Source: a virus (Duplodnaviria > Heunggongvirae > Uroviricota > Caudoviricetes). Taken from it: a stretch of 9,913 nt of DNA. The number at the start of each line of letters is the position of its first letter. The first letter of the stretch is position 1. The stretch lies in the IMG/VR virus record IMGVR_UViG_2675903396_000026. One strand, written 5' to 3'. The position numbers are program-made. Below are positions 3,001-6,000 of the stretch, piece after piece.

Positions 3001-6000
3001 TTACACTATCATTACGACGATCCACATGCATTGAAATTCCATCAGGAGCATATATTGTACCAAGCTTACCTGTAAGTATCATATCCATATCAAGATAGAT
3101 ACACCCCTCCCCGAATGAAATACCGTGATTCTTTGTATTATATGTGCACCTGAATATCTCTCCTGCTTTTAATAAGGCTAAATTTCTGAAGAAATCAAAC
3201 CATGCATGATTTCTTTTCTTTGCATACATAGAAATCAAAGAATCCTGCGCCTTTGAAATTTCCCTCAGCTCTTTCTCTAACAGATTCAACAAGTATTCAT
3301 CTCTTTTGTCTTCAGTTCGTAACCTTTGTTCACATATAATATCATGATAAATATCTGATAGTTTTCTGTCATACATACTGAAGTCAACATCTTCCCGATA
3401 GATTATCATTACATTTTCAAAATCTCGTTCCAATTTTGAAAAAGCAGTCTTTTGGTTGACTGAAAAATCGCCATCAACAAAAATACCTATCATACGATCA
3501 CTCTCTATCCTTGCCGCATTTGTGACATTATCTAAATAGGGATGCTGCTTAGTATTAACTATTGGAACCTCATCTTTCTTATATCGTTCAGGATTAGGTT
3601 CAAACCACTGAAAAAGAATAGGCGTTTTTTCATCAATGACCTTTAACTCATATTCCTTTCCTGCAAAAGAAACCGTTTGACAGGGTGAACTCTGCACTAT
3701 ATTTACTGAGTTATGGAAAGTTGTCCTTATCGGTGAAAGCATTCGTCGTCCTGTTTATCCATATTTTCTTCACAACTAACTCTTTAATCTATTAATTATA
3801 TTGGCATACTCAACCACAAAACCTCCAGCAGTTTTGCCATCTTTGCTTTCCTAACAAACATCCACCGGACATGACAACAAAAACCGGAGCCGGACTCCGG
3901 TTTTGTGAAGCTGTCGGGTTACTTCATCCCGCCAATATTTTCCCACGTCCCGTCAGCACGCAGGATTTGCAGCGGTCTTACCACACACTGTATCTGCTTT
4001 TTATCTGCATCCAGTATCACCACCTGTGTGATTACCCTGTCCTGCTCCGGAATAATGCCATTCTCATCTGACTCCAGAATGTCTGCCGGTCCCAGTCGCA
4101 ATTGTGCTGTAAGTGACCGTCCGTTTTCACAGTCATCATGCTTTCCGCAACCGCACAGACTCTGCATAAGCTTTCTCAAAATATTCATGTCATTCTCCAG
4201 TTCTGCCTGTATCACTGCCCACTTCATCCAGTCCCTTAACATCCTGCCATGGCCCGTCACCAAATCTGACCTGCAAATGCTGAAACATCCCCTGAACCTG
4301 TGTGGCATCTTTGGGGTCAAGAAAGGTCAGTCCGGTGATGAGCGCACCATCTGTACCCGGGAACCAGCCATAGCTGTTTGTCTCAATAATTCTCATCGGC
4401 CCCAGACGGAACCGTATTTGTGTCTCCCCCGGGTCGCCCTTCGCCCCCTGAGGTCCGGTAGCCCCCACCGGGCCAGCCGCACCTGTTTCCCCTTTCGGTC
4501 CCTGCGGTCCTGCCGGACCTGTTGCCCCGGTATCTCCCTTTGGCCCCTGTGGACCTGTACTTCCTGTCAGACCGGTCTCTCCCCGCTCTCCCCTGTCGCC
4601 TTTCGGCCCCTGCGGACCTGCCGGACCTGTATCTCCTCCCGGTCCCCGTTCACCGGTTGCCCCTGCCGGACCGGTGTCTCCACGCTCTCCTTTATCTCCC
4701 TTAGGCCCCTGAGGACCCGCGGGACCCGGTTCCCCCTTTGGTCCGGGAGGCCCCACCACGGTGGGAATTCTGTTTACGGCGTCTTCCGCCGCTATTCTGC
4801 TTTGTTCCGCTGACTGTGCGCTTTCTGCTGATTCCCGGGCTTTTTCTGTTGCGGTCGTTGCATCCCTGGCTGCATTACCGGCTGCACTTTCTGCCGTCTT
4901 TTTTGACAACTCGGCATCTGTTGCACTTTGTAATGACTCACTGGCTTTTTGAGCGGCCTCAGAGGCTGAGGACGAGGACGCTTCCTCTGACTTCTTTGCA
5001 GAGGCTGCACTTTCTGCCGCCTGCCGGGCTGACTCCGATGCATCCTCTGCTGAAGTATCAGCATTTGCGGCGCTCGCTTCCGCCTTACTGGCTGATATGC
5101 CGGCATTCCTCGCGGACGTCTCTGCTTCTCCGGCATTCTTCTTCGCCTCCTCTGCGTGACGCGCTGCTTCTTCCACCATCTGTTCAAAACGACGCAGTGC
5201 CTCCGGACGGGCATCATCCTCCGTCATGGCACCGAGAAAATCATTCAGCGTACCCGGTTGAGAATCTTCATACACGGAGATGGTCCCGGCATGTGATGGC
5301 GGGAATCCCTCCACCAACAGAGTGACGCTGTACTGACCATACTCGACGTCCATGCTGTAACGCCCTGCCTCATCCGGATTTTCAGAGGCCACCGTGTTCA
5401 CCACCACCGTGGTGCTGTTACGTCTGGCTTTCAGTTGAATGGTGCAGTTCTGTATTGGTTTTCCCGCACCATCTTTCAGCACGCCTGATATTTGTACTGC
5501 TGCCATACCCACTCCACAAAAAAGCCCGCCTGAACCGGCGGGCTGTCATAACGCTGTGTTACTAATCAAAATTTATAACCGACACCCACGATGAAACCGT
5601 CAGTGCGCCAGTCACCGCTGCCGGAGCCTTCATAAGCGACATCAACGGCCACTGATTCGGTCGGGTTAAACTGCACGCCAGCCCCCCACGCCAGAGACGT
5701 GTTGCTGTGGCAATAATCCCCGGAAAAAGTCGACACACGGCTGTAAGCCACACCCGCCATCGCATACGCACTGAACCATTCATTCACACGCACAGACGGC
5801 CCTGCCATCACGCTGAACCAGCGGTTACGCACGTAATCCTCATGCCAGCGGGTATCGCTGTAATGCGTTTTTTGCTCATCTTCGGCGTTGGCATAACTGA
5901 AGGACGTAATCAGCCCCAGTGTGTCCGTAAACTCATAACGGTATTTCACGTTAATCCCGTTCAGATCATCGCTGCCGGGAGCGTCCGTACTGGCATGAAG

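Follow-up and report, generated by a model that had tools for sequence, protein, structure and literature searches.

The collagen-like tail fiber EPclA carries a Phage_fiber_C (PfC) domain that has been established by experiment as a trimerization domain; recombinant EPclA and the isolated PfC both trimerize without a small partner protein, CD shows little helix in PfC, and the collagen domain melts at 42°C (Ghosh et al. 2012). In the podoviral phage Sp5, a separate 89-aa PfC polypeptide (i.e., ORF68, also designated ECs1229) is encoded after the fiber gene and has been placed among the nonessential late genes (Mondal et al. 2016). Its in-frame deletion fell outside the nine essential genes and outside the mutants with reduced or raised titers, unlike the fiber gene ORF67, which is essential; the same study suggested that genes of the ORF68 type represent a recombination reservoir and found no frameshift signal. 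The homolog has thus been shown to be dispensable for plaque formation and lysogenization on K-12. Other described members include gp59 of phi24B and a gene of AU5Stx1 labeled "atfT, alternate tail fiber tip" (GenBank KU977419).

The homolog is translated. The proteome of phi24B virions, which had been purified on sucrose gradients and stored for six months, includes six peptides (11 spectra) of gp59 versus 2,559 spectra for the fiber gp61, corresponding to roughly 3% of the fiber signal after length correction. This count is at the level of those of Lom (25 spectra) and Q (31 spectra), and the phi24B paper treats Lom as a contaminant. Neither the cryo-EM model nor the main text of that paper includes gp59. 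The small protein is not a stoichiometric part of the virion, and its homolog is a trace component of purified particles, although the trace signal in phi24B could equally represent a weakly bound component lost during purification and storage. Both the deletion data (Sp5) and the proteomic data (phi24B) come from podoviral phages only.

Here, we describe a gene that shares its family, its length, a TGAnATG junction, and a position behind the fiber gene with Sp5 ORF68, phi24B gp59, and AU5Stx1 atfT. Unlike these genes, which follow a podoviral lateral fiber of the EPclB type, it lies behind the siphoviral EPclA-type side fiber of a defective lambdoid prophage.

Locus organization and identity of the small protein

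The window (i.e., the whole stretch of 9,913 nucleotides analyzed; IMG/VR record IMGVR_UViG_2675903396_000026) belongs to the Escherichia coli O157 prophage CP-933K/Sp3, and the genes concerned are all located on the minus strand (Table 1). All long open reading frames (ORFs) of the window were assigned, namely to J, lom, stf, and effectors. The side tail fiber gene stf encodes 440 aa when read from a GTG codon, with the PGAP start at 5506. Its 3' end (GGAGAATGAcATG) leads into the small ORF through the minus-strand junction ...ACT GGA GAA TGA C ATG AAT ATT. The TGAcATG arrangement reported in the preliminary description is present, a Shine-Dalgarno sequence precedes the ATG, and the ATG is near enough to the stf stop to allow the translational coupling proposed there. 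Downstream, a strong terminator (-21.2 kcal/mol for the minus strand of 3868-3921; z = -3.95; none of 200 shuffled sequences was as stable) closes the unit formed by stf and the small ORF, ahead of the effector cargo genes nleB2 and nleC. The small ORF sits next to lom (gene order J-lom-stf), where the late operon gives way to accessory cargo. Positions 3700-5700 revealed no sigma-70-like promoter and thus no sign of small-ORF expression in the lysogen.

TABLE 1 Features of the stf region and the Tfa remnant in the window
Feature	Position	Strand	Basis or remark
stf, collagen-like side tail fiber, EPclA type (PfN, coiled coil, collagen, PfC)	4190..5512	-	
Stf PfC domain, residues 366-429, paralog of the small protein	4226..4417	-	PF06820
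Shine-Dalgarno sequence GGAG of the small ORF	4195..4198	-	Within last stf codons, 6 nt 5' of ATG
stf stop codon TGA	4190-4192	-	Single base C (4189) between TGA and small-ORF ATG
89-aa ORF, free-standing PfC-domain protein	3919..4188, stop codon included	-	Translation, Pfam, PHROG, PGAP
N-terminal extension of small protein, residues 1-27 (MNILRKLMQSLCGCGKHDDCENGRSLT)	4108..4188	-	No Stf counterpart
PfC (Phage_fiber_C) domain of small protein, residues 28-89	3922..4107	-	Pfam
Peptides of small protein: VITQVVILDADK, ADGTWENIGGMK			
Intrinsic terminator, hairpin and U-run	3876..3904	-	About 15 nt 3' of small-ORF stop; RNA fold
C-terminal remnant of lambda-type tail fiber assembly protein (Tfa)	1051..1206	-	PF02413 match

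The small protein is identical (100%) to WP_001024022.1, which PGAP annotates at the identical locus as "phage tail fiber C-terminal domain-containing protein," and it shares 91 to 99% amino acid identity with homologs from Stx phages. Both this protein and Stf match the whole PF06820 (Phage_fiber_C) model (positions 1 to 64 of 64): the small protein does so with 123.3 bits (E = 5.1e-36; gathering threshold, 25 bits) and the Stf domain with an E value of 1.1e-33. A BLASTP alignment of residues 29 to 88 with Stf residues 367 to 428 contains 22 identities in 62 positions (35%; E = 5e-10). Profile and pairwise matches are both well beyond chance, and they bear out the earlier proposal that the ORF is a separately encoded paralog of the Stf C-terminal domain. 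The full length of the protein (1 to 89 of 89) matches phrog_576 (E = 2e-60), and its profile, junction, and neighbor gene all identify it as a member of PHROG 576 (Sp5 ORF68 type). No other Pfam family was matched at E ≤ 1, which excludes membership of Caudo_TAP and similarity to known Tfa chaperones at this threshold. A search of PDB sequences yielded nothing relevant (top match, optineurin; E = 0.81).

The gene for a canonical Tfa is indeed a stub in this prophage, as had been noted. What is left encodes 51 aa matching positions 80 to 125 of the 131-position PF02413 (Caudo_TAP) model (E = 5.8e-16), lies 2.7 kb from the small ORF and downstream of nleB2 and nleC, and is labeled "tail fiber assembly protein, incomplete, missing N-terminus" by PGAP.

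The PfC domain of the small protein resembles that of EPclA and EPclB in matching the whole model and in its predicted all-beta structure, which agrees with the CD results for PfC, and by homology it is probably a trimerization domain. In an AF2 prediction of the monomer, residues 30 to 84 form a six-stranded all-beta domain (pLDDT, about 88 to 91). A Foldseek search of BFVD returned only weak, nonsignificant matches (E values of 0.009 to 0.1) to tail fiber proteins of unrelated phages, which would be suggestive of a generic fiber module. The small protein differs from its EPclA and EPclB counterparts in its sequence (35% identity), its roughly fivefold slower evolution, the lack of a collagen stalk and PfN anchor, and the structure of its termini. 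Whereas the Stf PfC is followed by a 12-residue C-terminal tail, the free copy has no such tail; conversely, its 27-residue Cys/His-containing N-terminal extension lies outside the BLASTP alignment, in agreement with the earlier remark that it has no counterpart in Stf. The extension consists of a short predicted helix (residues 3 to 11, at low confidence in the AF2 model), a Cys-x-Cys-Gly-Lys-His motif, and a variable linker, with residues 12 to 26 predicted to be disordered. The CGCGKHDDC motif highlighted previously is conserved only in part: all 56 alleles have C12 and H17 and 55 have C14, but the third cysteine, C20, is replaced by Arg in 35 alleles. The Salmonella homolog described below has a similar start (M-x-I-F-K-K-I...C-L-F-G-C-D-K). 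By inspection, hydrophobic residues in the N terminus (MNILRKLMQSLCGC) extend over about five positions and a canonical L-[AS]-[GA]-C lipobox is lacking, which makes a lipoprotein exclusion factor of the Cor or T5 Llp type unlikely.

Pairing with PfC-tipped fibers and selection

Far from being unusual, as the preliminary description had it, the arrangement is widespread. The gene is annotated by PGAP and PHROGs and was already known from its publication as Sp5 ORF68 (Mondal et al. 2016), where it is characterized as it was in the preliminary description. We found it behind PfC-tipped fibers in 697 of 5,426 complete E. coli genomes (median, 12 copies per genome). The free copy also occurs in 296 records of Stx phages, both long tailed and short tailed; the Stf-type PfC likewise occurs in 296 phage records, with a matching breakdown by organism name. 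Among 87 related loci, the upstream ORF invariably ends with TGA one base before the ATG, and it carries an Stf-type PfC wherever there is enough upstream sequence. The pair occurs with siphoviral (J-lom-stf) fibers as well as with podoviral ones (933W-type). The small gene and the PfC-tipped collagen-like fiber gene form a fixed two-gene cassette.

The family is very narrow, as an exhaustive profile search of 1.84 billion representatives yielded only 90 matches, mostly fragments. A scan of genome contigs yielded two loci only. One of these is on a contig of 725 bp labeled "Xanthomonas pisi"; it shares 99% identity with the E. coli gene and most likely represents contamination. A comparable pair is present in a Salmonella prophage, in which a different fiber with a diverged PfC end is followed by a 79-aa free PfC protein, a terminator hairpin, and effector genes; here, the small ORF has an AGGAGG sequence with a 6-nt spacer and overlaps the fiber gene by 14 nt. 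Between E. coli and Salmonella, the free copies are 62% identical and the fiber-borne copies are 41% identical, whereas cross comparisons give 30 to 35%. The fiber-borne copies have a C-terminal tail of 12 to 17 residues that is absent from the free copies. By these comparisons, the pair of fiber-borne and free PfC is ancient, and the versions in E. coli and Salmonella phages are orthologous.

The 270-nt ORF is intact in 86 of the 87 related loci, and the same number retain the junction comprising the Shine-Dalgarno sequence, stop, and ATG (GGAGAATGACATG). The two-gene arrangement is accordingly kept in related prophages, and the prospect that the frame might prove noncoding in relatives did not materialize. 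For the 56 alleles, dN/dS was 0.13 over the whole gene, 0.044 in the PfC domain, and 0.23 in the N-terminal extension. The corresponding value for the Stf PfC was 0.21, so that constraint on the free copy is roughly fivefold stronger. The small gene is thus under strong purifying selection, which implies some selected function, and the conservation of its start codon, Shine-Dalgarno sequence, and extension, along with the low dN/dS of the domain, indicates that selection acts on an expressed protein.

Candidate roles of the free PfC protein

The present results, together with the published deletion and proteome data, narrow the reasonable roles of the small protein to that of a dispensable, substoichiometric partner of the fiber knob. 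The explanation that we tentatively favor is that the gene is a genuine late gene whose product trimerizes via PfC and is largely nonstructural. According to this scheme, the small ORF would be transcribed together with stf and translated from its own Shine-Dalgarno sequence and ATG at the stf stop, with the terminator following. Given the 35% identity, the PfC domain of the product would mediate trimerization, like that of Stf, and the product would act inside the infected cell, where it may nucleate, stabilize, or cap PfC trimers under conditions outside those reproduced in the laboratory. It would be neither an integral tip, nor a frameshift fusion partner, nor a silent recombination cassette. 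The gene holds the slot occupied by tfa in lambda, and it resembles lambda Tfa in lying directly after stf, in its small size, and in its coexpression with the fiber. T4 gp38 is not a major virion component, and the same holds for the small protein. Unlike Tfa and other Caudo_TAP proteins, however, it is homologous to the fiber's own tip, has no Caudo_TAP similarity, and is needed neither for trimerization in vitro nor for Sp5 infectivity. The idea of a Tfa-like folding template must therefore be given up as far as an essential role is concerned, because recombinant EPclA and PfC trimerize alone and the viable Sp5 deletion mutant has no reported phenotype; a helper role would be modest, at most conditional or quantitative.

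The same domain relationship lends itself to a structural interpretation, in which the small protein is a noncovalent accessory or alternate tip, i.e., a trimeric knob docked on the distal end of the fiber (e.g., on the conserved C-terminal tail of Stf) that confers a second receptor specificity, much as the T2 gp38 adhesin sits on gp37. We consider this unlikely. The small protein does belong to the same fold family as the fiber tip, in line with the label given in AU5Stx1; it always accompanies PfC-tipped fibers in the loci and records examined; and the 12- to 17-residue tail specific to the fiber-borne copies could be a docking site. Lambda Stf is dispensable, and dispensability of the small gene on K-12 would fit a tip of this kind. 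Homolog peptides are also present in purified virions, but at about 3% of the fiber signal (11 versus 2,559 spectra), and the small protein has no virion-anchoring domain. Moreover, the free copy is more constrained (dN/dS of 0.044 versus 0.21) and better conserved between E. coli and Salmonella (62% versus 41%) than the fiber-borne copy, which is the opposite of what is expected for an adhesin that determines host range. The alternative tip module suggested earlier is weakened by the trace amount in phi24B virions and by the lack of a fusion peptide in the examined part of the phi24B table. That the homolog is expressed but hardly found in virions, and is dispensable for plaques and lysogenization in spite of the function implied by purifying selection, would also suit a soluble protein, such as a free knob set loose at lysis that masks receptors on debris, vesicles, or neighboring cells, or one with another late intracellular role. 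The position of the gene beside lom, where late operon and accessory cargo meet, is in keeping with such a function. By inspection, no signal peptide is apparent (the hydrophobic core before the Cys residues spans only about five residues), the interval 3700-5700 has no sigma-70-like promoter, and the constant linkage to PfC-tipped fibers over two tail morphotypes argues for a fiber-related role. A soluble function of this sort is accordingly not likely.

Two further possibilities concern the link between the genes at the nucleotide level. A programmed +1 frameshift could produce a minor fusion of Stf with the small protein, in which the knob would be replaced or a second one added; the candidate sites are CCC-AAA-G within the Stf PfC (window positions 4309-4315) and the stop GAA-UGA-C. 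Relative to stf, the small ORF occupies the +1 frame in E. coli as well as in Salmonella. In 81 of 87 loci, this frame stays open over the 46 codons that precede the ATG, all 84 loci with enough sequence have CCCAAAG, and UGA-C provides a weak context for termination. The search database of the phi24B authors even included fusion models (FS1 and FS2) labeled "Spike or just gp59?". The sole FS1-unique peptide (SVVVSGTLK; 88 spectra), however, is the N terminus of the mature fiber and does not span the junction. The examined part of the phi24B table has no junction or alternative-frame peptide, whereas normal-frame peptides past the proposed shift site are abundant (190 spectra). The excess of "Fusion_6159_FS1" over gp61 in a low-molecular-weight gel band was considered as a sign of a free 10-kDa species and rejected, as it is explained by the same N-terminal peptide. 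The Salmonella frame closes two codons before the ATG, alternative-frame residues differ nonconservatively between alleles, and a conserved Shine-Dalgarno sequence and ATG would be needless for a fusion. With the negative search of Mondal et al. (2016) added, a frameshift product seems very improbable. It is rather doubtful that a minority of fibers carry the small-protein knob as an alternate tip, whether docked noncovalently or joined by a rare +1 frameshift; if they did, a single prophage would have two fiber specificities, and the trace peptides of phi24B would represent that minor species. The reservoir proposed by Mondal et al. (2016), in which spare sequence is grafted onto stf by recombination to vary the tip, is improbable for a different reason: the two PfC-coding segments are 52% identical at the nucleotide level and their longest exact run is 7 nt, which is too little for homologous exchange. 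A diversity-generating retroelement was rejected on the same figures, along with the absence of an RT-sized ORF in the window. Two apparent chimeras among database proteins, one with collagen repeats joined to a free-type PfC (P0063) and the other with a free-type N terminus joined to an Stf-type PfC C terminus (P0128), would favor a reservoir; we do not trust either as evidence, because P0063 starts at the very end of its 3.3-kb contig (base 4), possibly as an artifact of assembly. A silent cassette also fits poorly with the conserved start codon, Shine-Dalgarno sequence, and extension, with the low domain dN/dS (0.044), and with translation of the homolog, and a copy less variable than its Stf counterpart would be a poor source of diversity. 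Many O157 prophages are defective, including CP-933K/Sp3 (Asadulghani 2009), and the ORF could in principle be what is left of a tandem duplication of the domain that a frameshift has split, as the preliminary description had envisaged, now decaying and nonfunctional. With 86 of 87 copies intact, dN/dS of 0.13 overall and 0.04 in the domain, a Shine-Dalgarno sequence and ATG of its own in the separate orthologous pairs of both E. coli and Salmonella, and a translated homolog, this is hardly credible and that proposal is refuted.

The fiber gene and its partner occur roughly a dozen times per EHEC genome, on prophages with Shiga toxin and type III effector cargo, and the role of the partner bears on host recognition and on the spread of virulence genes by EHEC phages. 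What our analysis sharpens is that the pair is ancient and orthologous, that selection constrains the free copy more tightly than the fiber-borne one, and that the reservoir idea clashes with both DNA divergence and selection. Several PfC-like modules (...VVVL.AD....G.L.VR.ADGTW..I...) within one collagen-containing fiber system also occur in a 565-aa metagenomic protein (P0152); there, four copies lie in a single polypeptide, before the collagen region, whereas in CP-933K/Sp3 a gene of its own encodes the second copy.

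The stf Junction and Its Gene Neighborhood

The window comes from a lambdoid prophage of Escherichia coli O157:H7 (CP-933K/Sp3 type), of which it forms the tail end, and is 100% identical to NZ_CP033605 across the queried stretch. The minus strand carries, in order, J, lom, stf, an 89-aa open reading frame (here, the small ORF), a terminator, and the effector genes nleB2, nleC, and nleH1, with a tfa remnant among the effectors. The 3' end of stf reads ...GGA GAA TGA, followed by a single C and ATG AAT ATT, and a Shine-Dalgarno (SD) sequence (GGAG) lies 6 nt upstream of this ATG. 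The preliminary description, in which a separately encoded paralogue of the Stf C-terminal domain was proposed to adjoin stf, was confirmed as an observation: the ORF translates into the 89 residues named there, and their similarity to the Stf C terminus (BLASTP, 35% identity over 62 residues, E = 5e-10) is far beyond chance. Both segments match the entire Pfam PF06820 model (Phage_fiber_C; here, PfC; E = 5.1e-36 for the small protein and 1.1e-33 for Stf), and the small protein matches PHROG profile phrog_576 (89 residues) end to end (E = 2e-60). The gene identity is close to certain, and the feature is already known (Sp5 ORF68, Pfam PF06820, and PHROG 576).

Features of the window
Feature	Position	Strand	Remark
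J	6176-9589	minus	
lom	5566-6105	minus	
Terminator-like hairpin	5523-5544	minus	8 pairs (7 G-C), U-run
stf, collagen-like side tail fiber	4190-5512	minus	
Stf PfC	4226-4417	minus	
CCCAAAG	4309-4315	minus	inside Stf PfC
Small ORF with upstream open frame	3919-4320	minus	133 aa, TTG start
Small ORF, 89 aa	3919-4188	minus	
Pseudogene fragment (PGAP)	3810-3917	minus	
tfa remnant, 51 aa	1051-1206	minus	PF02413 positions 80-125 of 131, E = 5.8e-16

A hairpin with a U-run follows the small-ORF stop after about 15 nt (-21.2 kcal/mol; z = -3.95), and no sigma-70-like promoter was found within positions 3700 to 5700; the late tail-fiber transcript therefore appears to end with the small ORF. Another terminator-like hairpin separates lom from the stf start, and RNA polymerase heading for stf and the small ORF would have to read through it, presumably via Q-mediated antitermination. 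The pseudogene fragment directly 3' of the small ORF overlaps the terminator and has no Pfam match; PGAP calls it "hypothetical protein, missing N-terminus" in this window and, for other prophages, "tail assembly protein, frameshifted." The tfa remnant, the C-terminal part of a lambda-type tail fiber assembly protein, lies isolated 2.7 kb from stf, with nleC and nleH1 on either side, suggesting replacement of an older stf-tfa module by effector cargo and a cassette of the small ORF and an EPclA fiber (the collagen-like siphoviral type).

AlphaFold2, run with an 18-sequence alignment, predicted a confident all-beta domain of six strands at residues 30 to 84 of the small protein (pLDDT of ~88 to 91), a low-confidence helix at residues 3 to 11, and a disordered linker at residues 12 to 26. 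Across 56 alleles, the cysteine motif described for this N terminus shows only partial conservation: all retain C12 and H17 and 55 retain C14, but 35 have Arg in place of C20.

Conservation, Distribution, and the Salmonella Pair

We compared 87 loci (80 from IMG/VR, the window, and annotated records). The 270-nt small ORF is intact in 86 of these, GGAGAATGACATG is kept in 86/87, and the upstream ORF terminates at a TGA one base ahead of the ATG (87/87) and carries a Stf-type PfC wherever enough sequence is available. Nei-Gojobori dN/dS across the 56 distinct small-ORF alleles was 0.13 overall, with 0.044 in the PfC domain and 0.23 in the N-terminal 27 residues; that of the Stf PfC from the same loci was 0.21. 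The small ORF is a functional gene. Amino acid variation in the Stf PfC (48 alleles) clusters at a few positions (RLGP-[GN/AS/MR/MS], NS-[H/N/Y]-G, FP-[D/G], DAT-[Q/R], and G-[F/L/M]-F-[Q/R]); the corresponding sites of the free copy hardly vary.

A 541-nt query covering the stf 3' end, the small ORF, and the terminator matched 697 of 5,426 complete E. coli genomes at 7,515 places (median, 12 per genome). The arrangement, initially called unusual, does not surprise Stx-phage specialists. PGAP names the product "phage tail fiber C-terminal domain-containing protein." In the phage collection, the small protein and the Stf-type PfC each occur in 296 records with identical organism-name breakdowns, spanning long-tailed lambdoid phages and short-tailed Stx phages of the 933W/Sp5/phi24B type; in the latter, the homologous ORF follows the lateral fiber (EPclB type) with the same one-base spacing. 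A profile search run exhaustively against 1.84 billion representatives returned 90 matches, mainly fragments, and the family is nearly absent beyond E. coli, E. albertii, and Citrobacter rodentium. A version of the small protein with 99% identity to that of E. coli, encoded on a 725-bp "Xanthomonas pisi" contig (NZ_JPLE01000138.1), is almost certainly E. coli contamination of that assembly.

The profile search also recovered a divergent 79-aa free-standing homologue from Salmonella enterica (P0138). The Salmonella locus (L087, positions 1 to 1000; GCA_008387015.1) has the same layout as the EHEC prophages: a different fiber gene (212 aa in the gene call) with a diverged PfC at its 3' end, a free PfC gene with a 14-nt overlap with this fiber gene and an AGGAGG SD upstream, a terminator-like hairpin, and, beyond it, effector genes of the NleG and SopA types. 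In the fiber protein, the diverged PfC is preceded by a motif resembling a carbohydrate-binding module (YYIGSICTHHGESYQSL...W). Between E. coli and Salmonella, identity is 62% for the free copies, 41% for the fiber-borne copies, and 30 to 35% in all cross comparisons. It follows that the duplication is older than the divergence of these phage lineages and that both paralogues were retained together; the free copy evolves more slowly. Both fiber-borne copies have a C-terminal tail of 12 to 17 residues that the free copies lack.

Possible Roles of the Small Protein

In-frame deletions of Sp5 late genes have been published (Mondal et al. 2016; PMC5155283): the fiber, ORF67, was essential and was located at the tail end by immunogold labeling, no frameshift signal was found, and ORF68, for which specific deletion primers are in the supplement, is absent from the mutants reported with lowered or raised titers. 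For phi24B, a 2026 bioRxiv preprint (10.64898/2026.04.10.717836) resolved the lateral fiber gp61 and presented a virion proteome in which the small protein appears in supplementary tables and not in the main-text discussion. The search database held two hypothetical fiber-small-protein frameshift fusions labeled "Spike or just gp59?"; the fusion entry received 7 razor peptides and 99 spectra. Of these spectra, 88 are SVVVSGTLK, the mature fiber N terminus, which counts as unique to the fusion entry purely through the way the entry was constructed. The other six peptides (11 spectra) come from the small-protein region, those listed including VITQVVILDADKK and ADGTWENIGGMK (3 spectra each). The fiber had 2,559 spectra, Lom 25, and Q 31. 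Among the peptides listed, a table cut off at low counts, none was from a junction or alternative frame, and the four specific to the normal-frame fiber C terminus totaled 190 spectra.

These data bear on several readings. A decaying remnant of a split duplication, one origin initially proposed, is excluded by the intact ORFs, the selection on the small ORF, and the orthologous Salmonella pair. A recombination reservoir for the fiber tip fits poorly, given that the two PfC-coding segments are 52% identical in DNA with a longest exact run of 7 nt, that the start signals and N-terminal extension are conserved, that the protein is translated, and that the free copy is less variable than the Stf copy. 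A frameshift fusion with Stf retains some support: relative to stf, the small ORF is in the +1 frame, which has no stop in the 46 codons preceding the ATG in 81 of 87 loci; CCC-AAA-G is conserved; and the stf stop has the weak context UGA-C. Against fusion, a stop closes this frame in Salmonella two codons before the ATG, the alternative-frame residues vary nonconservatively, the listed phi24B peptides include no junction, and a fusion would have no need of a conserved SD and ATG. At CCCAAAG, divided as CCC-AAA-G in the stf frame and kept in 84/84 related loci with enough sequence, both tRNAs could re-pair in +1, and the phi24B authors apparently placed their hypothetical frameshift there. Because the frame, which overlaps the Stf PfC, is open upstream of the ATG, annotations are inconsistent (130-aa "atfT" in AU5Stx1; 135-aa frame in the phi24B database).

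A Tfa-like role was also suggested initially; in the form of an essential chaperone, it is contradicted by EPclA self-assembly and the viable ORF68 deletion, and the small protein has no sequence relation to Caudo_TAP. The original interpretation is partly supported: it stands for the separate paralogue and falls for the remnant and for an essential Tfa-like role. A stoichiometric tip protein fits badly with a count of 11 spectra versus 2,559 for the fiber and with the stronger conservation of the free copy. The data leave a dispensable, late-expressed, largely nonstructural protein, whose invariable linkage to PfC-tipped fibers across two tail types and two host genera argues that it acts on or with the fiber knob. 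The favored reading, given slightly less than an even chance, is that it conditionally helps or caps PfC trimers, with its gene taking the slot of tfa in lambda. A strongly conserved, highly repeated gene without a known phenotype is a tidy, testable problem.

Other PfC-Bearing Proteins

Two database proteins are chimeric. In P0063 (L088, positions 4 to 291), which begins at a contig end such that genuine recombination and assembly artifact are indistinguishable, collagen repeats join a free-type PfC directly (...GERGPA|DILESD...); P0128 combines a free-type N terminus with a Stf-type PfC C terminus. A metagenomic fiber-like protein from a Logan assembly (P0152; 565 aa) carries, ahead of its collagen repeats, four PfC-like repeats in tandem (...WEFDL.DG...KTVVVL.AD....G.LRVR.ADGTW.EIPA.KG); PfC-like modules can therefore recur within a single chain.
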